A stretch of DNA of 64,000 nucleotides. It comes from a phage. Location of the stretch: the sequence record MZ956761.1; one strand, given 5' to 3'. This document shows, piece after piece, positions 48,744 through 61,701 of the stretch. The notes beneath the pieces are model-generated. The model saw only the letters and a program-made list of their open reading frames with translations, did no database searches and was not told the origin of the DNA. Positions within the stretch are counted from its first letter, which is position 1. Each line of letters opens with the position of its first letter. Both the position numbers and the translations under genes were made by a program.

Positions 48744-49022
48744 ATGATTATTGATTCTCAGTCTGTGGTTCAATACACAATCAAAATTGATATTCTAGAA
48801 AAGCTATATAAGTTTCTACCAAATTTATACCACTCAATTGTTAATGAATTAGTTGAAGAACTACATCTCGAGAATAATGATTTCTTGGTTGGAACTTATA
48901 AAGACCTCTCAAAAGCAGGATATTTTTACGTAATTCCAGCTCCAGGAAAAAGTATTGATGATGTATTAAAAACTATAATGATTTATGTCCATGATTATGA
49001 AATTGAAGATTATTTCGAATGA
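48744..49022 (+). CDS. arn: anti-restriction nuclease Arn
   Basis: 92 aa; matches recalled T4 Arn; ATG after AAGGGGAAGG. Confidence 0.75.
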   Translation: MIIDSQSVVQYTIKIDILEKLYKFLPNLYHSIVNELVEELHLENNDFLVGTYKDLSKAGYFYVIPAPGKSIDDVLKTIMIYVHDYEIEDYFE

Positions 49023-49171
49023 GTCATAATCTTGAAAAGGTAATCGAGCATAATGTAGCTCAGGAACGTAAGTCGTTCAAGGAATTCGTAGAAAAAATTT
49101 TTGAAGAAAATAACACAGACCAGTTTACAAATCACGCGTCTGATGATATTATAACAAAGTCAACTAATTGA
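49019..49171 (+). CDS. hypothetical small protein (50 aa)
   Basis: ATGA overlap with arn; contains asiA promoter-like sequence. Confidence 0.3.
   Translation: MSHNLEKVIEHNVAQERKSFKEFVEKIFEENNTDQFTNHASDDIITKSTN
49120..49153 (+). promoter_or_regulatory. T4 early promoter candidate for asiA
   Basis: GTTTACA -35, 17-nt spacer, TGaTATTAT. Confidence 0.6.
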
Positions 49172-49183
49172 GTGGTATAGTTA

Positions 49184-49456
49184 ATGAATAAAAACATTGA
49201 TACAGTTCGTGAAATTATTACTATTGCATCTATTTTGATTAAATTTTCCAGAGAAGATATTGTTGAAAATCGTGCTAATTTTATTGCATTTCTGAATGAG
49301 ATTGGAGTAACGCATGAAGGTAGAAAATTAAATCAGAATTCATTCCGTAAAATTGTTTCTGAATTAACTCAAGAAGATAAGAAAACCCTCATCGACGAAT
49401 TCAACGAGGGTTTTGAGGGTGTATATCGATATCTAGAGATGTATACGAACAAATAA
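49184..49456 (+). CDS. asiA: anti-sigma70 factor AsiA
   Basis: 90 aa; matches recalled T4 AsiA (MNKNIDTVREIIT...). Confidence 0.95.
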   Translation: MNKNIDTVREIITIASILIKFSREDIVENRANFIAFLNEIGVTHEGRKLNQNSFRKIVSELTQEDKKTLIDEFNEGFEGVYRYLEMYTNK

Positions 49457-50113
49457 TTATTTAGCCCTTCCTAATATTCTGGCCGCCTGAGCACATATTG
49501 ATTCAAGGCGGTCATTACTTATATGATCATTTCTATACCAGTACATGGTTATCGTTCCAGCATAGATATTATCCAAATTAAAATATGGACAACTGTACAT
49601 GTAGTTTATTTCGGGAGTAGGCTTTTTAGTTGGTAAAAAAGCAAATTTTGAGTCAGAATAATAATGACGTCCATTTAAATGAACTGTATATTCATCCATA
49701 GTTTTATCAACAGGATATCCTCCAAGTGATTTTTCAGTTATTGTTGAAGGTAATCTTCCTTCGTATGCTATAATATCAACAAAATAGTTTAAGTTTTTAG
49801 GGCGGAAAGAATACACCGCACTAAAGTCTGCCTCAGATGATATATGAACTATCTGGAGTTGTTCCAGGGCGACAGATTCAAAGCGTGCATTTCTTTCCTT
49901 TTCAATAATTTCACTGTATGTTTCATACTTTGATTGCTTATAGTACTCAAAGAAACTATCTCCCCTATACCAAACAATCGCCATCATAAATAAAAGAATT
50001 ACGACAGCTACCCGGGAAGCAAGAACATTCCCGGTAGCGTTATCTTTGAACAAGCGATCTAGAACACCAAACAGAATATCAGAGGGCGAAAATGATATTC
50101 TAGGTGCTGCCAT
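49457..50113 (-). CDS. t: holin T
   Basis: 218 aa; matches recalled T4 holin (MAAPRISFSPSDILFGVLDRLF...); SD AAGGAGG. Confidence 0.95.
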   Translation of the reverse strand: MAAPRISFSPSDILFGVLDRLFKDNATGNVLASRVAVVILLFMMAIVWYRGDSFFEYYKQSKYETYSEIIEKERNARFESVALEQLQIVHISSEADFSAVYSFRPKNLNYFVDIIAYEGRLPSTITEKSLGGYPVDKTMDEYTVHLNGRHYYSDSKFAFLPTKKPTPEINYMYSCPYFNLDNIYAGTITMYWYRNDHISNDRLESICAQAARILGRAK

Positions 50114-50143
50114 AGACCCTCCTTTTAAGGATATTTATTCAAA

Positions 50144-50935
50144 TTATACTCTTGCACCATATATTGTACCAACTTTAGTCCAAGTTGGAGCATTACCAGT
50201 AACAGCTTTACCTGCTGCGCCACCCGAGTGAACAGTTCCTCCAGTACCACCTTGAATATATGAAGATTTGCCCGCAGCCCCCAAATCTCCACCATCTCCT
50301 CCATGGTGAACCCCAGAAACAGTACCTTTACCAGGAGCAGAAATTGTAGCGGCAGATGCTGCCGCTGCGCCGCCGCCTGCTGCACCCGCTGCACCAAATG
50401 GACGACCTCCGCCGCCACCAAATATCATATCCATCTGGGGGAAAGGATGATATCTAGCACCAGCGCCACCACCACCTCCACCACCGATAATACCATTATT
50501 GTTTATTCTTAAACGAGTTCCAATTCCGTTATTTATTGCAGTTCCTCCTGCTCCACCAGCAGAGTTACTTCCGCCATTTCCTCCTCGACCCAATACATGA
50601 ACACCACTATTAATATTTAAGGTAACATATGCATTAGTTAATGAGCTAGGAAAATCTAAGCATGGTTGACCTGTCGATGAAGAAACGATATTGCCTGTAA
50701 TAGTAATAACAACAGGAGTACTTCCTTGGGCTTTTATCCAATTTATTAGTGTGTCTTTATTATAAGAATTGCTAGCACCAATGCTGTAATATACTTCTTT
50801 AGATTGTCCGGCCATTGAGCTCATCCAACCAGGAACTGAAACACGAACTGCTCTCATCGCAGCATCCATCCAGCGTTGTCCAGTTTCATTCACGGCAGAT
50901 TCACCAATCCAGCCAGGAACACCTACAATTGCCAT
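50144..50935 (-). CDS. 38: long tail fibre adhesin gp38 (T2/T6-type, glycine-rich)
   Basis: 263 aa; poly-Gly motifs between variable segments; directly downstream of gene 37. Confidence 0.85.
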   Translation of the reverse strand: MAIVGVPGWIGESAVNETGQRWMDAAMRAVRVSVPGWMSSMAGQSKEVYYSIGASNSYNKDTLINWIKAQGSTPVVITITGNIVSSSTGQPCLDFPSSLTNAYVTLNINSGVHVLGRGGNGGSNSAGGAGGTAINNGIGTRLRINNNGIIGGGGGGGAGARYHPFPQMDMIFGGGGGRPFGAAGAAGGGAAAASAATISAPGKGTVSGVHHGGDGGDLGAAGKSSYIQGGTGGTVHSGGAAGKAVTGNAPTWTKVGTIYGARV

Positions 50936-50964
50936 TAAAAATCCTTAGAGGGCCGAAGCCCTCT
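50936..50964 (-). terminator. minus-strand terminator/attenuator between genes 37 and 38
   Basis: AGAGGGC-TTCG-GCCCTCT hairpin followed by U-tract on the minus strand. Confidence 0.55.
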
Positions 50965-50965
50965 T

Positions 50966-53900
50966 TTACATAAGTTTAGATTCGAGTTCTTTTACACGAG
51001 AAGAAAGTGTTTTCACAGCTTCAACCAGAAGAGCAATCTGGGCTTGAGAAGAAACAGTGAGTATTTTATTACCCTTGCTATCTTCTGTTTCATGGACGGC
51101 TTCTGGTAAAACGTCTTGCAACGTTTGAGCTATAATACCCGCTTCGGTTTGAACAGGTTCACCGCCTATATATTCAGCTTTGTCATAGATTAAACCATCA
51201 AGTTGCTCAACCCTTTCGAGCGCATTTTTAATAGGTTTAAAATTAGATTTCAAGCGAACATCAGAACGAATATAAACGTTAGGAGCATTGACGTTTTTCT
51301 CGGAATAAACTTCACTTGAGGTGAATCTAACAACTTTAACGTTGTTCGCCCACGCTTCTAAAAGCCCATCGCCTACTTGTCTAAAACCAGTATCACTATC
51401 ACCAATTGCAATGGAGTTACCACCCCAACCGTTGGAGGTATTTACACCAAATGCTCTCGCAGATCCGCATGATAGTATAGGAGCATAAAATGTTCCGTCC
51501 ATATCAAAAGTCCAACGAGCCTGTTGCCCCGATGGGTTGTCGCCACGCATGCGAATAATACCTTGACGCCAAGTACCAGAAACACCTAACCATCCAAATT
51601 CAAATGATTGACGATAGCCCGCGTCAGTTAAAAAACTGTATCCAGAAAATAGCGGGTAATAAGCTTGACTTGTCTTGGAAATGCCACCCGTATTCGCTAA
51701 GAATGCAGAATTGTCGCGAGTCACATCTGAAATAGCAGAAAAGCTAACACTCCATTGTCCGGCAGCTTTAACTCGTGAATTAATGTTTCCATTAATAGTA
51801 ATATCTTTATCAAAAGAAGTATTTTCGCCAAGACGAACAGTACCAGCAGTCATATCGATTGAAAACGGTCGTTTTCCATTCCAATCGCCTTCAGTTGCTT
51901 TATTATCGCCGTCTGAAGAGTTTTTGTCAGTCAGTAAAATATAGAAGTTTCCACCGTCATTTCGAAATAAAACGGAATTAGAACCTGATCTATCAGAATT
52001 ACTCGTAATACGAATACCGGTTTGGTTATTAATAGCAATTTCCGACTCTGCTACATAACGCTTAGAACCATTAGGCGTTTTTTGCAAGTTGTTAAGAACA
52101 CTAGCAACCTGTCCTTGAATAGCCGTCTCAGGAAGTTCAACCGCAGTTTCTGTTGCACCCGGTTGGTCCGTTGCAAATACCTGGTTAATGGTAGCATTAG
52201 GAGTAGCATAATAAGAAACTGCTAGCGCTTGAGCATAAGTACCAACGTTTACATAGATGTCATAAACATCGCCTGATGTATTAACCGTTGCAACATTCTT
52301 AATACCCTGATCGGTATCCATCGACCAAACAACAGCGTTAATACCTTTCGGGTTATTGTTCGAAGTTCTTAAAACAATTTTCGAAGTAACGCATTGGTGT
52401 GGGGTGTTGACATTATAGCCATTACCACCAGCAATTTCGAATGTGACGGTTGAAGTGGATTGTGGCATTGTCACCGTTGCTAATTTGTACCAACCGCCAG
52501 TACCTGAATAAGAAACCATTCGGGTATTGACTTTACGATCTAATGTCGAGTTCAAGTTAGCAAAGTTAGGTAATGAACCACCCGTGATATTACCATCAGT
52601 ACCAATACGAACATTACCAGCACCTAATTTACCAGGAGAGTAAAAATCACCATTTTTATTAAATTCCCAACCTAAATCCTTTATAATTGCGCCAGTAGAA
52701 CCGCCATCGCCACCTTCGTGATAATGAACTCTAAAGTTACCACCATTAATTAAAGTACCAATAGAATAGCAACTATTATTTTGAACGTATCTTTGTTTCA
52801 CAATAGGAACATAAGTGCTTGTATCGGTTCTATCTATATTCATGTAGAACGGAGCACGAACGTTTTCATTATTTTGTGAAGCAAATGAACCTGCACCGGC
52901 TGGGCGAACAGCATCAGTACATTCTGCATCAATGTATGCCGACTGACCTATCTGCATACGGTAATTAGGAGAAATACGACTATGACTAGTAACAACAACA
53001 AGTTTGTTATCATTGTCTACAGTAATCATATTGCCGCCTCTGCCATCATCGCCTAATGTGACAGAATGACGCATGGTGACTTTACCATCACTTAATGCAA
53101 TATAGAACGGGCGTAAATTAGAAATACCACCTGATTCACCAACATTCTGTGGAGTTGGAATAATATAAAGCTTATCTTCAGAACGTCGGAAAATAGCACC
53201 GTATTCAGCATTCCAAATTCTTAATGCATCAGCCGTTCCACCAAATTTAGCTTGTCCGTTTACAGATAATCCATTATTAACATTTAAAGAAGATTCAGTT
53301 GTAATAGAACCAGAAGCAACAATACTACCTGAAGTTAATAAACCACCATTAACTCGAAATTGAATAGGTCCGACAGTAGAACCTGATCCGGGAGCAACTC
53401 GCTGAGAATAAAAATGGTAACCTTGCCCATCTGATACTTCAAAAACTGTTTCACGGGAACGATCTCCAGATGTGTTAAATGAATTACCCCACGCTTTAAC
53501 AGTTACATAGCTTTTATTCTGCCCAGCACGCTTACCACCTTCCCACAAAATTTGCTTAGTGCCGTCAATTGTAGTAGTTGGAGCGAATGTTAGCCCAGCA
53601 GTAGAATTATTAGCTGCTAAATATATGCCGTTATATATTGAAAGCTGCTTAACAGATGTAATACCGCCATCAGCATAAAACATTACATTATTAGAGCCAG
53701 TTACTAGTTTAAGAATACCAGGGTTAACTTCCATGCCTTCTTGGGTATTAATATTAGTTTTGCCTTTACCACGGAAATAGTGGTTCATTTTTCCGCCTGA
53801 GTTATAGCCAATATGTGTCTGACCGTCTCCAGCAGTGTTTTCATCAGCTTGTGTTTGAACTGATAAAAATGCAGCGTTCGTTCCAGGCATAATCCATGTT

Positions 53901-54949
53901 GTACCTTGGTCTTCTGAGCGTCCAAATATTGCTTTGCGAGTACTACGGAAACTATCAGGTGTAATAGATGCCAAAGATAAACCAGAACCAACAAAATCAA
54001 ATACGCCGGTTTTTCTATAAACTAGACCAGTTCCATTATCACCTAAAGCAAGAAATATATTTCCTAGTGCCCCAACATTTCCATAATCGCTTGACGGAAA
54101 CCCTTGCGTCACAGTACCAATGGCCAAGCTATTGCGAATAATCATTCTACCGTCGTTACGAATACCATATAGTTTAAATAACGGTATATTACCAGTCCAC
54201 CAAGAAACTTCATCAGCCAGGCCTGTTTGGGCAGTAACAATTTCATGATAAATTGTACCACCGGACTTAGCGCGAACTTTACGAAGATAGTTTACGCCAT
54301 TTGTTTCACCGGTTCCAGGATAAACATAGTTAACCAAAGATTGTGAATCGTATTGTCCAAATGATTTAGAATCATGATTAATTAAATTAACACTAATAGT
54401 TGGTGTACTAATAGAAGTTAAAGCAGTTAATTTGCGTGCCTGGAAGATACCACCATCGGTAGAAATGAAATGAAATTCTGAATTTTGAGCTCCCGCAGCG
54501 GTTCCTTGACGAACACGCATTGTAATTACGCCTTCATTTTCAGACTGCGGTTTTGAATATAAAACGCCACGTTCTGAGCCATTTGTATTTTCAAACCAAA
54601 GATGGGCATTTGCAGTATCGTTTGTTGCTCTTGCATAAAATGAACCCTGTGTAGATCTGAAAACTTTTGCAGTTACGCCATCAGTAGAACCAATAGGTCC
54701 ATTTATAGTCATTCCACCTGTTTGTACATAATCGCCGTTTAACCTCAAAAGACCATTGATAGTTACATTTCCATCAATTTGACCGCCTTTAGCAATACCT
54801 AGATCAATGATATTTCCTGAATCATCTTTAGTAAAAATTGTTCTATCTTTTAAGTTTATAGCCAATTCACCTTCGGCTAATACTGAAGCAGCAGGACGTG
54901 CACCTGCGGTTTTGCTTCTTTTAAATTGTATTTGTTTTAAAGTAGCCAT
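50966..54949 (-). CDS. 37: long tail fibre distal subunit gp37
   Basis: 1327 aa; conserved N-terminus [16 protein letters not shown]; SD AGAGGA. Confidence 0.93.
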
Positions 54950-54957
54950 AAGTCCTC

Positions 54958-55623
54958 TTAATAATAGCCGAAATCTTGAACAGAATCCTTAATTACGATT
55001 TGATCAAATCGTGGAACGTGTGAGGGTTGAGATGCGGGATTCTGTGAGAAAAAGTTTGGCGCTGTTAAATTACCTATCATAGTGTCGCCAGAACGCAACA
55101 CTCTAGAGTTCGCATTTGCCGTAACAGTATTTATTGCTCCATCAACATAGTCCTTTCTAGTAAGGTCATTCGCTGCTATAGGAGCAGCCGCATCACTTCT
55201 TACTTGACCAGCTGCCGATACAACACCTTTTGTGTTAATATCACCATTACGTGCATTAATTACAACAGTTCGAGCTGCTGAACCTTGCGATGATTTAAAA
55301 CCAATACCATTCCACGAAACAATATCGATATTTGCTACAGCAAAAGTAGCATTATCACCGTTACCTGGATAAATACCGCATGGGTTTGTGTTGTTTACAG
55401 CATATGGGACTTGGACGCCGCCGTTAAATGTTACCTTTGATGCATAAGTACCACCATTAGCTTTAGAAACGAAATCGTTATCAGCAGCTTGTGGTTTATT
55501 ATATTCTGAATATATTTTAAATGATTTATAGAGTACATCGTCACCGGCTGGATTCAATGGAAAATTTCCTTGATGCCAAATGACAGAGCCTCCAGTTGTT
55601 GAACCTACTTTTAAATCAGCCAT
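54958..55623 (-). CDS. 36: long tail fibre hinge subunit gp36
   Basis: 221 aa; T4 size and synteny. Confidence 0.9.
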
Positions 55624-55646
55624 TGTATGCCCCTTTATTTTAATAG

Positions 55647-55654
55647 TATTTATA
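55647..55654 (-). promoter_or_regulatory. late promoter (TATAAATA) for gene 36
   Basis: exact TATAAATACTATT on minus strand about 24 nt upstream of gene 36 ATG. Confidence 0.75.
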
Positions 55655-55660
55655 AAGAAA

Positions 55661-55685
55661 AAGGGAGCCCGAAGGCTCCCTCAAT
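55661..55685 (-). terminator. minus-strand rho-independent terminator after gene 35
   Basis: GGGAGCC-TTCG-GGCTCCC hairpin followed by U-tract on the minus strand. Confidence 0.7.
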
Positions 55686-56801
55686 TTATACTTCTCTAAA
55701 TTCTTGCCCAAACACTTTACCAGTTTTAGACGATGCTTGTGTAGGAAGTACCATTATATCCGGAGGTGAAGCAGATTCACAGATATAATTAACTCGAATA
55801 CCGTTGACGCCAAATTCAGCGGGTTTTGAAATGCCGCCATTTCTTGATACTTCAGAAAAGCTTAAATTTCTCATGCCACCTTGGCCAGCTTGTGCAGTTC
55901 TCTGTGCGTATATCGTAAATCCTACTGCGTTTTCTGGAACAACTACATAATCTTCCTTTAATTCCCATGACCCAGCTTGCCCAGTAAATTCAGCTTGTGT
56001 CGAGGAAATATATCCATTTGATGCATTATAAAATCGAATGGATATATTCGTAGTTCCAAGAGCAAGTAAATCGGCATCAGCATATAACTGAGCTTTAAGA
56101 TAAAGAACATCACCAGGAATTAAATTATAATCAGATAATTTACTTATAGCAGCTGAAGTTGGTAGACGCGCAATTTCGTTATTAGTTCCACCAACAGCTG
56201 ACATAAATTGCTCAACGCTTTCATACGTTCTTCTTGGAAACCCGGTAGCTCCGACATCTTCTAAACTGTCAAATACTACATCTAAAATAGTTTGATAATC
56301 ATCTGTGCTTTTTCTATTACTCAGTTTAACATGCTCTAATGCAATAGCTCTTTTAGAAGAAGTATAAAAAGCAGCATATGATACGTCGAATCTTGACAAT
56401 ATAGAGTCAGATGGAAAAGCAGACGTTCCGGCGGTTCTTAACCAAGATACTACTTCAGGAGGAAAATTAACCTTTCCGTTAGTTAATATAGCAACAATTC
56501 GATTATTCGTCAAAGAATTCATGAAACTAACAAAAGCAGCTGATGTAGTATCATTTGAAGTAGAAAAAGCATATGACTTACTATCAACTAATGCTCCTGT
56601 GGAAGGGTCAAAAACTCTTAAATGAAGACCTGTGCTAAATGTTTGACTTCCTACAGGATTATCTTGAAATTTAACGTATGGCCCTGCAGTAGAAAGCGGG
56701 CAAGAACCCGCTATGCTTATTTTATATCTTACTGAATTGCTTTCCGATAAAAACGGCGTTTGGACATATCCTTGTCCAAACTCTGCCATAAATTTTTCCA
56801 T
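55686..56801 (-). CDS. 35: long tail fibre hinge connector gp35
   Basis: 371 aa; T4 size and synteny. Confidence 0.9.
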   Translation of the reverse strand: MEKFMAEFGQGYVQTPFLSESNSVRYKISIAGSCPLSTAGPYVKFQDNPVGSQTFSTGLHLRVFDPSTGALVDSKSYAFSTSNDTTSAAFVSFMNSLTNNRIVAILTNGKVNFPPEVVSWLRTAGTSAFPSDSILSRFDVSYAAFYTSSKRAIALEHVKLSNRKSTDDYQTILDVVFDSLEDVGATGFPRRTYESVEQFMSAVGGTNNEIARLPTSAAISKLSDYNLIPGDVLYLKAQLYADADLLALGTTNISIRFYNASNGYISSTQAEFTGQAGSWELKEDYVVVPENAVGFTIYAQRTAQAGQGGMRNLSFSEVSRNGGISKPAEFGVNGIRVNYICESASPPDIMVLPTQASSKTGKVFGQEFREV

Positions 56802-56809
56802 AATACCTC

Positions 56810-59800
56810 TTATTCAACCCATTCAAATTTAACCGTTTTATTCACTGGGTCAGGAACAATGCGAACATTACCAATTCGCAAGAAATCACGAATAGTAAGA
56901 TTCCCCATTGTAGCATTATCAGATGGTAAAGCACCGATATCAGATGGTTGAGGAGGGTTACCTCCGTCAAATACCTGAACAAAACTTGACCAAGAGTTTT
57001 TGGTTTTCTGCCATGTACGTGTCCAGCGAGTGGTACGCGCTTCTGGCGTCGTTGGATAAGTAATCCAATCTTGGTAAAGCGAATCAAGTGTGTTACCAAA
57101 CTGAGTCAGTGTACCAGGAGATTTAACTTCTTCACCACGCTCTAAGTATGGAAGTCCAGTCACTTCATTAGTTTTTTCAACCATTTTAAAATAACCCGGG
57201 AACTGGTTATAAGTGGCTGAATCGTTAATATCGATTGACCAGAATCCTACTGTATCAGATGTTGGCGCACGGGTATATAAGTCAGATGTTTTAGTGCCCT
57301 GAGAACGAATTCTCGAGTTAACAGTCAAACCACCTGAATTTATAGTAGCACCTTTGGCAATTATTAAGCTTTCACCAATCGTTACTTGGCCAGATGCATT
57401 ATTAATAGCCAAAGGACGTAATCCATTAAATCCGCCAGTCTGATCACCGGATGCAGTGAGCATAAAATAGGTATTAGCAGCATCATTGCGAATAAAGAAT
57501 CCATAATCACCACTAATTGCTCTAAATGCATTTGCAGACTTACTAATGAATTCACCATTGGCTGTAACTGAACGACCGAATGTTGCAACGCCATTCACAT
57601 TCATCAAACCGGAAGCATTAATGTTTATTGGCATTACAGTACCATTAATGCTAAACGCTATATTCCCATCTTTATTACGTTGAGAATAAAAATGATTAGA
57701 CGTTTCATCACCAACTTCAAATACAGTAGAACGTGTTGTATCTGAACCGCCACCAAACTGATTTCCCCAAACTCTGATAGTCATCGTCTGTACTGGGTTA
57801 GTTCCAGTTTGAGGTCCTTTCTCAAAAATCAGACGAGTTGCCGTTCCAGTATTAGAAATAGTTAATGTGCTGTTTGCCGAAACTGAACCACCAAACGTAG
57901 CAGTACTAGATGATACAAGAGGGGCACTCAGATTCGTTTGCTGGGTTAAGGTTAGTGAACCATTAACCGTCTGTGCAATATCCCTACGAATGAACTGAGA
58001 TGAATCTAGACCATCAAATAAATTTGTATCAGCAGCTTTTGCTTTTAACGGCAAATAATTTGCTAATACACGGTTTAATTCATATGGTGATACTGCATAG
58101 CTATTTTTCTCGTATAGCTCTAAGTCCTGCGTAGAACCAGCTGTATCATTACCAACGAATGTAATTGAACCAGATGAAGTTTTAACAAAACCTCTTATCG
58201 CAGTAGTAGCTGCCCAAGTAGGTTCACTCTGCACAATCCATTTTAAATTTTTTGGAGATACAGCAGTATTTGCCGACATTCCAGCCACAGTTTCAGACTG
58301 AGTTGCAACTTTAATAACACCTTCTTGCGATTCGGTAGATTTAGTACCTAAAAGCTTTTTAGGAGTTATTAAAACATTATCTAATGTTCCTGCAGCAGCT
58401 TCAACTTGTGTAGCTACACGAAGTGTACCACGCTGTGTCTCATTTGCTTCAAGAATATTAAGGGTATAATGGTCCCAGAGAGTTCCTGATTCAACTAATC
58501 CAGATAGAGCAACAACAGAAGTACGATCAGTACTATTAAATCTAGTTTTAATTTTTAATGGTGTAGAAATACGAGTATCGTCGACGCCTGCGTCGAATTC
58601 AACTTGTGTAGCAATTTCAGCTATACCACTTAAACTTTCAGTTGCTCTACGGTCATTTAAAGTTTTAGGAGTGACTGCACGAGTATAATCAGTTCCTGTA
58701 TTAACTTCACTTTGCGTAGCAATTTCAATTAAACCAATTCTTCCATCAGTTGATGTCTTTTTATGCAACGTTTCTGGAGTTACAACCGCATTTGCCCATC
58801 CTTCTTGACTCTGTCCAGCAATTACTTCACTTTCAACTGCTAAAATTACTGCACCTTGCTGCGTTGGAGTAGCTTTATACTGATCCAAAGCTTTAGGTGA
58901 AACAACTAAATTATTAGTGTTTTTATTATAAACATTCGTACCATTTAATTCACGGCTAGAAGCTGGAGTAGCACCTGCAGTAGATACAAAAGTTACAATA
59001 CCAGATAATGATTCAGAACCTTGACGAGCTTGAAGCTTTTTAGGAGTGATGATTGTAGTGTCATCGGTTCCTGCATTAGTTTCTTGCTGCGTAGCAATTT
59101 CAGCAACACCTCTACGAGTTTCAGTAGCCGTTCTTTCATTCAGCTTTTTAGGAGTGATGATAATATCATCAGCAAAAGAGAATGTGGTGTTCTGATTCAC
59201 TTGAGCAGTAGTTGCTATTCTTGCGATACCTCTACGAGTTTCTGTAGCAGTACGGTTAGCTAATGTTTCTGGAGTAATTGCTAATTCTTTTTGCGGAGAA
59301 TTTTCTAAATCGACATTAGCTTGCGCTTGTGTAGCTAAAGCAATTACGCCTAATCTTGCTCTAGTAGAATCATTTAAAGAATCTACTCTTTCTACAGTTG
59401 GAACATTTTGTTGCACAACCCAGTATTTTCCATCAGAATCTTCTATATAAGCAAGCTCTAAAACTGGAACATAGTTAGTTTCACCGTTAAAAACTAATTC
59501 TTGGACTGTAACCCACTCAGCTTCAGGCGGATATTCTGAGCGTTTTGGGAATTGCAGCAATTGAACTGAAGAAGCAATTTTATCTTCACCGGCAGCTTTG
59601 ATTTTAACCGTTTGTCCTTTTCTCATGTAATTCATGGAAATTTTAACAGTATCACCAACAGAAATATCAGTCGGAAGCTGAAGCTCAATTGTCTGAGTTG
59701 TTCCGTTATTCGCACCAAATACCATAACTTCTTCATTTGGACGAATGTTTGAATTAGTCGTTATGATACGTAAACGCGCTTTACTATCCCCGTCAAACAA

Positions 59801-60679
59801 TCTCCACAATTTCTCATTATCATCAAACATCAAGAAACCGTCAATCGATGTACGGCCTTCAATGGAATGAGTTCCAACTTCTTGTACTGAAGTCGTTTCA
59901 TCGTATGTAGTAACAATTGTATGATAAAGTGGATTTAGTTTATCTAAATCGACGAAATTAATAATATCGCCATGATTAGCAAATCTTGGAAGTTTGACAT
60001 TAATTGGTGCAGCAGAAGTAAATCTACGCACGATAAAATCATTAGATTGCGCTTGATAAGTATTCGCTGGTGTTACAACTACAGCTTCTCTACTATAATC
60101 AGCAACATACATTTGCCACAGACGATTACTAAAAATTAAAACTAGCTGTGACTTTGGATGAGTCATTAGTACTGAACGTACTTGTTCACCTCTAAAGTTT
60201 ACAATACTTTGCACTGGAGCTACAATTAAAACTTGGTTAACTCCAGGTTTTCCTCCAATATCTTGGAGAACGATAGTATCACCGTCAATTGGGGTAGATG
60301 GTAAAGTAAATGTAATATCATTACCAGCTGCGGTGTTAACCGAAATAGCTTCACCAGATTTTAATTGATATGAACCAGATGAGACTGTAATCCAGTTAGC
60401 ATCGGTACGTAATGCTCTCCAGCGTCCGCTATTAAAAGCTCCTGCCGGTTTTGGAATATCATTTATAGCAGCCCAAAAGCGGTTATCATAAATGATTACA
60501 AAATCTTTTAAATATCCACGAGTTGGATCGTATTGTTGAACTGTGTTTTCTTGAATTAGGTAATCAACGTTAACACCGTCAGTTCCTACGGCACGATCAG
60601 CTAAAGCTACGTTGATTATTTTATCGCCACCTGCGTCCAGACCATCTTCTGCTCTGAACTTTCTTTTAATCTCGGCCAT
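56810..60679 (-). CDS. 34: long tail fibre proximal subunit gp34
   Basis: 1289 aa, same length as T4 gp34; internal repeated motifs; SD AGGAG. Confidence 0.93.
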   Translation of the reverse strand: MAEIKRKFRAEDGLDAGGDKIINVALADRAVGTDGVNVDYLIQENTVQQYDPTRGYLKDFVIIYDNRFWAAINDIPKPAGAFNSGRWRALRTDANWITVSSGSYQLKSGEAISVNTAAGNDITFTLPSTPIDGDTIVLQDIGGKPGVNQVLIVAPVQSIVNFRGEQVRSVLMTHPKSQLVLIFSNRLWQMYVADYSREAVVVTPANTYQAQSNDFIVRRFTSAAPINVKLPRFANHGDIINFVDLDKLNPLYHTIVTTYDETTSVQEVGTHSIEGRTSIDGFLMFDDNEKLWRLFDGDSKARLRIITTNSNIRPNEEVMVFGANNGTTQTIELQLPTDISVGDTVKISMNYMRKGQTVKIKAAGEDKIASSVQLLQFPKRSEYPPEAEWVTVQELVFNGETNYVPVLELAYIEDSDGKYWVVQQNVPTVERVDSLNDSTRARLGVIALATQAQANVDLENSPQKELAITPETLANRTATETRRGIARIATTAQVNQNTTFSFADDIIITPKKLNERTATETRRGVAEIATQQETNAGTDDTTIITPKKLQARQGSESLSGIVTFVSTAGATPASSRELNGTNVYNKNTNNLVVSPKALDQYKATPTQQGAVILAVESEVIAGQSQEGWANAVVTPETLHKKTSTDGRIGLIEIATQSEVNTGTDYTRAVTPKTLNDRRATESLSGIAEIATQVEFDAGVDDTRISTPLKIKTRFNSTDRTSVVALSGLVESGTLWDHYTLNILEANETQRGTLRVATQVEAAAGTLDNVLITPKKLLGTKSTESQEGVIKVATQSETVAGMSANTAVSPKNLKWIVQSEPTWAATTAIRGFVKTSSGSITFVGNDTAGSTQDLELYEKNSYAVSPYELNRVLANYLPLKAKAADTNLFDGLDSSQFIRRDIAQTVNGSLTLTQQTNLSAPLVSSSTATFGGSVSANSTLTISNTGTATRLIFEKGPQTGTNPVQTMTIRVWGNQFGGGSDTTRSTVFEVGDETSNHFYSQRNKDGNIAFSINGTVMPININASGLMNVNGVATFGRSVTANGEFISKSANAFRAISGDYGFFIRNDAANTYFMLTASGDQTGGFNGLRPLAINNASGQVTIGESLIIAKGATINSGGLTVNSRIRSQGTKTSDLYTRAPTSDTVGFWSIDINDSATYNQFPGYFKMVEKTNEVTGLPYLERGEEVKSPGTLTQFGNTLDSLYQDWITYPTTPEARTTRWTRTWQKTKNSWSSFVQVFDGGNPPQPSDIGALPSDNATMGNLTIRDFLRIGNVRIVPDPVNKTVKFEWVE

Positions 60680-60713
60680 TCTCCCGGGCTCCTATTGTGT
60701 TTTCAATAATAAG

Positions 60714-60721
60714 TATTTATA
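60714..60721 (-). promoter_or_regulatory. late promoter (TATAAATA) for gene 34
   Basis: exact TATAAATACTTATT on minus strand about 35 nt upstream of gene 34 ATG. Confidence 0.75.
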
Positions 60722-60755
60722 CTTGTTTACTTTAAGATTCGGATGGTATATAATA
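60722..60755 (+). promoter_or_regulatory. T4 early promoter for rnh, back to back with the gene 34 late promoter
   Basis: GTTTACT -35, 17-nt spacer, TATAAT at 60749-60754. Confidence 0.65.
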
Positions 60756-60783
60756 GAAATCTCACTAATTGAACGAGGTTCAT

Positions 60784-61701
60784 ATGGATTTAGAAATGAT
60801 GCTGGATGAAGATTACAAAGAAGGAATCTGCTTAATTGACTTTAGTCAAATTGCGCTTTCAACTGCTTTAGTAAACTTCCCAGATAAAGAAAAAATTAAT
60901 TTATCAATGGTTCGTCATTTGATATTGAACTCAATTAAGTTTAATGTCAAAAAAGCAAAAGCTCTTGGATACACTAAAATTGTATTGTGTATTGATAACG
61001 CGAAATCTGGATACTGGCGCCGTGATTTTGCTTATTATTATAAGAAAAACCGTGGAAAAGCACGAGAAGAATCTACTTGGGACTGGGAAGGTTATTTTGA
61101 ATCCAGTCATAAAGTTATAGATGAATTGAAAGCTTATATGCCATACATTGTTATGGATATTGATAAGTATGAAGCAGATGACCACATTGCTGTTCTTGTT
61201 AAAAAGTTCTCTTTAGAAGGACATAAGATTTTAATCATTTCGTCGGATGGTGACTTTACTCAACTTCACAAATACCCAAATGTTAAGCAATGGTCACCGA
61301 TGCATAAGAAATGGGTTAAAATTAAAAGCGGTTCTGCTGAAATTGACTGTATGACTAAAATCCTTAAAGGCGACAAAAAGGATAACGTTGCTTCAGTTAA
61401 AGTACGATCTGACTTTTGGTTTACCAGAGTTGAAGGTGAACGAACTCCTTCAATGAAAACATCTATTGTTGAAGCTATTGCTAATGACCGCGAGCAAGCT
61501 AAGGTGCTTCTCACTGAGTCTGAATATAATCGATATAAAGAAAATTTAGTTCTAATTGATTTTGATTATATTCCTGCTAATATTGCTTCAAACATTGTGA
61601 ATTACTATAATTCATATAAATTACCACCGCGTGGCAAAATTTATTCATATTTTGTAAAAGCGGGTCTTTCTAAATTAACTAATAGCATTAATGAATTTTG
61701 A
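60784..61701 (+). CDS. rnh: RNase H (5'-3' exonuclease, FEN-like)
   Basis: 305 aa from ATG 60784; matches recalled T4 RNase H (MDLEMMLDEDYKEGICLIDF...). Confidence 0.93.
   Translation: MDLEMMLDEDYKEGICLIDFSQIALSTALVNFPDKEKINLSMVRHLILNSIKFNVKKAKALGYTKIVLCIDNAKSGYWRRDFAYYYKKNRGKAREESTWDWEGYFESSHKVIDELKAYMPYIVMDIDKYEADDHIAVLVKKFSLEGHKILIISSDGDFTQLHKYPNVKQWSPMHKKWVKIKSGSAEIDCMTKILKGDKKDNVASVKVRSDFWFTRVEGERTPSMKTSIVEAIANDREQAKVLLTESEYNRYKENLVLIDFDYIPANIASNIVNYYNSYKLPPRGKIYSYFVKAGLSKLTNSINEF

Follow-up and report, generated by a model that had tools for sequence, protein, structure and literature searches.

Positions 50144 to 54949 of the stretch of phage DNA analysed here (record MZ956761.1, 64,000 nucleotides (nt), hereafter the window) carry genes 37 and 38, which encode the distal subunit of the long tail fibre (gp37) and the protein at the fibre tip (gp38). 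We are highly confident that this locus is a standard distal tail-fibre tip module of the T2/T6/S16 type, in which gp38 would act as the receptor-binding adhesin, and that it belongs to the Tequatrovirus ADUt. All 4806 bases are 100% identical to Escherichia phage ADUt (OQ466432.1), a Tequatrovirus of 166.9 kb that was obtained from Turkish hospital wastewater. No aspect of the module is new, and its sequence has already been deposited as a phage genome. Descriptions of the architecture, structure and receptor logic of such modules date back to the 1980s, and structures were solved in 2018 and 2026. In practical terms, the gain is modest: the analysis provides a prediction of Tsx as the receptor of a phage whose paper did not examine the tail fibres, it allows a misleading GenBank label to be corrected from 'tail assembly protein' to 'adhesin', and it indicates that neither the length of gp37 nor the 3' end of gene 37 is a reliable marker of the host-range type.

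According to the model that we favour, gp37 would form the trimeric distal half-fibre, with its first 814 residues as a T4-like shaft. In place of the receptor-binding needle of T4, there appear to be a T2-like distal shaft of about 415 residues and a Peptidase_S74 chaperone of 99 residues; the latter would fold the gp37 trimer and would then be auto-cleaved at Ser1229. A single gp38 is expected to cap the exposed tip by means of its N-terminal domain with three tryptophans, and the variable segments of gp38 would be loops on a glycine-rich scaffold that bind an outer-membrane protein, most likely the nucleoside channel Tsx. The hairpin located between the two genes is most likely a stable element that either protects the upstream message or keeps the ribosome-binding site of gene 38 exposed.

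gp38 is of the adhesin type and not of the T4 chaperone type

Several profile searches place gp38 among the adhesins. The protein matches the Pfam family GP38 (PF05268) at aa (amino acids) 47-263 with 231.6 bits (cut-off 25; E = 1.3e-68) and the family Gp38_N (PF21721) at aa 1-42 with 64.6 bits (E = 8.2e-18), and PHROG 2056 ('tail fiber protein; host specificity'), a profile of 267 positions, matches aa 1-263 (E = 7e-101). Among solved structures, it matches gp38 of phage S16 (6F45_D, E = 3.4e-47, aa 8-261) and the receptor-binding domain of PP01 gp38 (9V85_A, E = 1.5e-30). The alignment with the S16 tip complex (6F45) retains the three tryptophans and all glycine-rich motifs, whereas the sequence identity amounts to about 49% and the loops formed by the variable segments are different and longer in ADUt (263 vs 249 aa for the whole protein). 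PP01 gp38 differs in that it binds OmpC. From the homology to 6F45_D and 9V85_A, gp38 presumably adopts a polyglycine-II sandwich fold.

The initial annotation of this DNA had assigned gp38 to the adhesin type of T2 and T6, and this assignment is borne out by the comparison with the T-even phages. The gp38 of T6 (MH550421, 261 aa), which is also of the adhesin type, is 54% identical over the full length, and that of T2 (AP018813) is 76% identical over aa 1-148; the N-terminal and the beta-helix parts of ADUt gp38 are T2-like and not T6-like. In contrast, no similarity was detected between ADUt gp38 and gp38 of T4 (NC_000866), an unrelated chaperone of 183 aa (BLASTP E = 13). The T4 protein matches PHROG 105 ('tail fiber assembly') at 6e-45, but ADUt gp38 has no match to this profile (phrog_105).

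These results also bear on the annotation of gp38 in public databases. In GenBank, ADUt gp38 (WFG41952.1) is labelled as 'tail assembly protein' and several of its relatives as 'distal long tail fiber assembly catalyst', which would imply an assembly chaperone of the T4 type outside the virion. These labels are all that speaks for such a function, and they are carried over from the unrelated gp38 of T4. Since the T4 protein belongs to a different PHROG family (105 vs 2056) and aligns at E = 13, since gp38 matches the solved adhesins of S16 and PP01 over its full length, and since gp37 possesses an S74 chaperone of its own but not the Collar/needle tip of T4, the probability that gp38 is a chaperone is close to nil, and by sequence comparison this alternative is already refuted.

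The domain layout of gp38 corresponds to the published one, in which glycine-rich motifs alternate with hypervariable segments (Trojet 2011; Lutz 2025). Trp9, Trp22 and Trp37 in the N-terminal attachment domain are invariant in an alignment with T2, T6, S16, Bas43 and SA20RB. In the S16 structure, these three tryptophans dock gp38 into the gp37 trimer, and one gp38 caps one trimer (PMC6851490). The per-column entropy of 17 diverse gp38 homologues revealed conserved glycine-rich motifs at aa 116-121, 129-131, 152-158, 173-184, 213-222 and 238-247, with four variable segments interspersed at about aa 122-128, 159-172, 185-212 and 223-237. The mean entropy is 0.24-0.93 bits in the glycine-rich blocks and 1.9-2.4 bits in the three long variable segments. 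This is the alternation that had been proposed at the outset, although the description of 'several GGGGGG tracts' was slightly overstated. The glycine-rich motifs are present, and glycine accounts for 60 of the 263 residues, but there is a single run of at least six glycines (G7, in the region of aa 152-158), next to one G5 run (aa 173-177) and many GG or GGG.

Two observations concern unusual forms of gp38 in related phages. The T6-like gp38 encoded at L009:4501-5331 (IMGVR_UViG_2974787500_000001; 277 aa) contains the unit GGGGG-YYSPFSQMRLTF twice as an exact tandem duplication. The unit consists of the second variable segment together with a glycine-rich motif, and its repetition is a natural duplication inside the receptor-binding domain. 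Furthermore, nine loci (L018-L024, L027 and L028) encode short gp38s of 155-174 aa that keep only the N-terminal attachment domain, with up to 76-78% identity over aa 1-45 in L019-L024 and with Pfam Gp38_N as the sole match (checked for L019). Beyond this part, the short proteins continue with an unrelated C-terminal domain not rich in glycine. They resemble an alternative tip module carried by the same docking domain.

Tsx as the predicted receptor

The gp38 allele of ADUt is widespread, as it occurs with at least 95% identity in about 59 phage records. The initial annotation had expected gene 38 to be hypervariable. This is correct across the family, but the present allele is a common one. 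Its most informative relatives are Bas43 (TadeuszReichstein, MZ501106) and the Mosigvirus phages AV114 and AV115, whose gp38s also comprise 263 aa and are 96.6% identical to that of ADUt, with nine substitutions each in the case of Bas43 and AV114. Bas43 is listed as Tsx-dependent (BASEL supplementary table), and the use of Tsx by AV114 and AV115 was determined experimentally (PMC10844046). The second variable segment is identical in ADUt, Bas43 and AV114, and it has the motif PFPQM in common with gp38 of T6, the classical Tsx-binding phage. In T2, which uses FadL and OmpF, this segment reads ASLKNSYPTNGSC instead of ARYHPFPQMDMIF. The fourth variable segment is identical to that of AV114 and differs at one position from that of Bas43 (Q228K). 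It has been described that the phylogeny of gp38 predicts the receptor (PMC12032242), and in three independent collections close relatedness of gp38 went along with a common receptor. Judged from these similarities, Tsx is very probably the receptor that is recognized by the gp38 allele of ADUt.

Several points weigh against this prediction or against the model in general. The substitutions A196G, H211Y and D214N separate ADUt from both Bas43 and AV114 and are located within the third variable segment or beside it, and a small number of point mutations in the second and third segments can be sufficient to add or switch receptors (Trojet et al.). The overall identity to T6 gp38 is 54% only, and the variable segments other than the second one differ. 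Likewise, the three-dimensional fold assumed for gp38 derives from homology.

The three substitutions could mean that ADUt uses a receptor other than Tsx, or Tsx in combination with OmpA or lipopolysaccharide (LPS). This could explain the growth of ADUt on Shigella, where it lyses both S. dysenteriae and S. flexneri. In PST compared to T6 and in SV76 compared to T2, the specificity was altered by small changes in the second and third segments, and AV108, which possesses a related gp38, uses OmpA (PMC10844046). However, the second segment equals that of both Tsx-verified alleles and the fourth that of AV114, with Q228K as the difference to Bas43, His211 and Asp214 are shared with RB18 and SA20RB, and closely related gp38s had the same receptor in all three collections. 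We therefore regard a changed or extended specificity as rather unlikely and consider Tsx to be the receptor to be expected. As to RB18, its receptor was looked up in Trojet 2011, where this phage is not mentioned.

The comparison with AV114 (L029, OR352944) touches also on the mobility of the adhesin gene. AV114 belongs to another genus and carries the same gp38 allele (96.6% identity at the amino acid level and 93.4% at the nucleotide level), whereas its gp37 is only about 47-50% identical to that of ADUt. Nearly the same gp38 thus stands beside a rather different gp37, and therefore the adhesin cassette moves independently of the shaft. The shared block comprises the conserved S74 region, the hairpin and gp38 aa 1-114. 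The presence of the allele in a Mosigvirus points to an exchange of the adhesin cassette between genera.

gp37 combines a T4-like shaft with a T2-like end

The product of gene 37 is 100% identical to ADUt WFG41953.1 and matches PHROG 1699 ('long tail fiber protein distal subunit') over its full length (E = 0). The homology to T4 gp37 ends at aa 814 of the ADUt protein, where the Collar/needle tip of T4 starts, and the sequence is T2-like beyond this point. T4 gp37 ends in this receptor-binding tip and has no S74 domain. A domain search found neither Collar nor Phage_fiber in ADUt gp37, although both are found in T4 gp37. Within the shaft, aa 492-617 form a Gp34_trimer-like domain that matches the C-terminal trimerisation domain of gp34.

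The C-terminus of gp37 carries a Peptidase_S74 domain (PF13884, aa 1229-1286, 1.6e-13), which opens with SDVRLK at position 1229. It aligns with the C-terminus of S16 gp37 (6F45_A), with SDVRLK placed over SDRRIK, so that both proteins have the motif SD(R/V)R(I/L)K in common. Each of the 18 gp37s that adjoin glycine-rich gp38s has the pattern SDxRxK at a distance of 94-117 aa from its C-terminus. Residues 1251-1327 are 86-100% identical to the corresponding parts of T2, Bas43 and SA20RB (86-96% in the case of T2), and T6 gp37 possesses an S74 domain as well, although it comprises 994 aa and is 31% identical to the ADUt protein. In T2 and T6, the C-terminus of gp37 is proteolytically removed before gp38 caps the fibre (literature cited in PMC3157838). 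By analogy, we infer that ADUt gp37 removes its S74 domain by self-cleavage.

Two further claims about gp37 did not hold. The great length of gp37 had been taken as part of the adhesin architecture, but the partners of adhesin-type gp38s range from about 750 aa (the S16-like locus L017) over 994 aa (T6) to 1341 aa (T2). The gp37 of T6 is shorter than that of T4 (1026 aa), yet its partner is a gp38 of the adhesin type. Gene 37 had also been expected to be hypervariable at its 3' end, whereas the last 99 codons encode the conserved Peptidase_S74 region and the variable part is located at about aa 800-1100.

Windowed identities show that aa 780-1110 of gp37 are the most variable stretch of the whole module among close relatives. 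Among phages with a gp38 of at least 95% identity, this stretch is only 68-74% identical, and the best other match is that of LH2 with 89.6%, the single close relative of the ADUt version. Bas43 gp37 is 86% identical overall but 70.5% in this stretch, and T2 reaches 26-54% over aa 800-1100. It is conceivable that about aa 800-1100 are a second host-range determinant independent of gp38, for instance by contacting LPS or the O-antigen. The variability of the segment among phages with nearly the same gp38 fits this idea, as do the example of SA20RB (gp38 99.6% identical, gp37 50% identical overall) and the fact that the segment matches fibre modules of Salmonella and Acinetobacter phages. However, no evidence for a binding activity was found, work on T2-type phages (Trojet 2011; Lutz 2025) assigns the receptor specificity to gp38, and neutral mosaic recombination of shaft repeats explains the variation equally well. 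Such a determinant is quite improbable. Even less credence can be given to the more far-reaching proposal that, among the carriers of near-identical Tsx-type gp38s, this segment is under diversifying exchange and acts as a gp38-independent host-range determinant through contact with LPS or O-antigen or through the reach of the fibre, or alternatively that Ala196, His211 and Asp214 widen the specificity beyond Tsx.

Residues 972-1076 of gp37 (about positions 51722-52036) resemble aa 572-675 of T4 gp37 with 32% identity, which is an internal shaft-repeat relationship. Such repeated shaft modules could mediate recombination.

The hairpin between genes 37 and 38

Genes 37 and 38 are separated by a spacer of 30 nt, which contains a C(UUCG)G hairpin that starts 1 nt past the stop codon of gene 37 and ends directly 5' of the Shine-Dalgarno sequence of gene 38. 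Its perfect stem of 7 bp includes five GC pairs, and the free energy of -13.4 kcal/mol corresponds to a z-score of -3.1 compared to shuffled sequences. In the predicted fold, neither the Shine-Dalgarno sequence nor the AUG of gene 38 is paired. Spacer and hairpin are identical in T2. A hairpin of at least 6 bp is present at the same position in 24 of the 28 loci compared, including T4, T6 and S16-like phages, while in one more (L027) there is just a weak stem of 5 bp located farther upstream. The remaining three (L008, L018 and L025) have overlapping stop and start codons of genes 37 and 38 (TAATG), a Shine-Dalgarno sequence within gene 37 and no intergenic hairpin, so that the architecture does not require this element. 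Compensatory changes were observed in five of the seven pairs among eight tetraloop hairpin sequences, a set that was chosen by hairpin scanning and is thus biased towards pairing. The counting was limited to these eight, as MAFFT placed hairpins with loops of 3 nt and of 4 nt out of register. An Rfam search of positions 49000-61500 (E ≤ 1) yielded nothing at the hairpin, its sole match being a chance hit to SraG (E 0.91).

C(UUCG)G hairpins are a well-known class in the mRNA of T-even phages (PMC4371310). The sequence CTTCGG occurs 33 times in the window compared to 12.5 ± 3.5 expected occurrences (2.6-fold over-represented; none of 100 shuffles reached 33), and 13 of the 33 occurrences are part of hairpins of at least 5 bp, mostly without U-tails. 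From this excess and the 13 hairpins it follows that the hairpin between genes 37 and 38 belongs to the same class. Examples of CTTCGG sites are found at positions 2019, 4388, 5658, 10374, 12544, 19414, 36484, 41765, 41997 and 44642.

The initial annotation had described the element as a hairpin attenuator. The hairpin is real and conserved; it is the role as an attenuator that lacks support. If it were a partial intrinsic terminator, it would lower the transcription of gene 38 (and t) relative to gene 37, which would fit a ratio of gp37 to gp38 of 3:1, as expected from the single gp38 per gp37 trimer in the S16 structure. The GC-rich stem followed by AAGGAUUUUUA passes a lenient terminator scan, and there is no exact late promoter between genes 36 and 38. 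However, the U5 run AAGGAUUUUUA starts 6 nt past the stem, where it doubles as the AT-rich spacer between Shine-Dalgarno sequence and AUG in ADUt, and the homologous hairpins of T6, T4 and S16-like phages are not followed by such a run. In a detailed annotation of SA20RB, terminators are marked elsewhere but not at this position, the absence of any hairpin from the three relatives mentioned above argues in the same direction, and so do the 13 similar CUUCGG hairpins in the window, most of which have no U-tail. Moreover, the T4 hairpin is part of a split ribosome-binding site that enhances the translation of gene 38: it is located between Shine-Dalgarno sequence and AUG and boosts initiation by shortening the spacing from 22 nt to 5 nt (PMC3014915). 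In ADUt, by contrast, the hairpin is located upstream of the Shine-Dalgarno sequence. A function as transcription attenuator is possible but unsupported, and we consider it unlikely; a stabilizing or site-exposing element, as outlined above, is the better explanation.

Gene layout and transcription

The coordinates of all features are compiled in Table 1. The open reading frame (ORF) list gives the order 34-35-36-37-38-t on the minus strand, and the part 36-37-38-t is shared with T2, whose gp37 is of similar length (1341 vs 1327 aa). T4 also resembles ADUt in gene order and in the homologous hairpin before gene 38. The genes that were given initially, with 1327 aa for gp37 and 263 aa for gp38, agree with the ORF list to the base, and those quoted for T4 (about 1026 and 183 aa) agree with the T4 record (1026 and 183).

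Table 1 Features of the tail-fibre tip module and its flanks (positions in the window)
Feature	Position	Strand	Basis
Gene 37, distal long-tail-fibre subunit, 1327 aa	50966..54949	-	ORF; PHROG 1699; ADUt WFG41953.1
gp37 aa 1-814, T4-shared shaft	52508..54949	-	70% identity to T4 gp37 aa 1-813
gp37 aa 780-1110, highest variability within the module (close relatives)	51620..52612	-	Windowed identities
gp37 aa 1229-1327, intramolecular chaperone (Peptidase_S74), presumed auto-cleaved	50969..51265	-	PF13884; S16 alignment
C(UUCG)G hairpin, 7 bp	50947..50964	-	AGAGGGC-UUCG-GCCCUCU; fold -13.4 kcal/mol
Gene 38 Shine-Dalgarno sequence AAGGA, 6 nt before ATG	50942..50946	-	Sequence; unpaired in predicted fold
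Gene 38, tail-fibre tip adhesin, 263 aa	50144..50935	-	ORF; Pfam GP38 and Gp38_N; PHROG 2056; PDB 6F45_D, 9V85_A
gp38 aa 1-46, attachment domain, W9/W22/W37	50798..50935	-	Alignment; S16 structure
gp38 aa 116-247, receptor-specificity domain	50195..50590	-	Per-column entropy, 17 diverse gp38s
Holin t	49457..50113	-	Flanks gene 38
gp36	54958..55623	-	Flanks gene 37
T4-type late promoter TATAAATA, upstream of gene 36	55647..55654	-	Exact consensus match

A scan of the minus strand between positions 49300 and 61000 revealed only two exact matches to the late-promoter consensus, one at 55647-55654 (gene 36) and one at 60714-60721 (before gene 34), and none between genes 36 and 38. Since exact late promoters are thus present only before genes 34 and 36, the genes 36, 37 and 38, and possibly t, are probably co-transcribed from the TATAAATA promoter. 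A scan for sigma-70 promoters gave 41 sites compared to 38.3 in shuffled sequence, which is no excess, and was not used.

The GC content rises to 0.49 at positions 50000-50499 compared to about 0.35 nearby. This rise coincides with the Gly/Ala-rich region of gp38, which in our reading is its cause.

Two further palindromes on the minus strand are located outside of the module. A C(UUCG)G hairpin of 9 bp, GAGGGAGCC-UUCG-GGCUCCCUU, is located after gene 35 at 55661-55682, with a U-run behind it and the TATAAATA promoter directly after this run; this hairpin is a better terminator candidate than the one between genes 37 and 38. The other one is a terminator-like palindrome of 14 bp, AAAACCCTCG...CGAGGGTTTT, at 49382-49414. 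It is located within the 3'-terminal part of asiA and 43 nt past the stop codon of holin t, where the late 36-37-38-t transcript may end.

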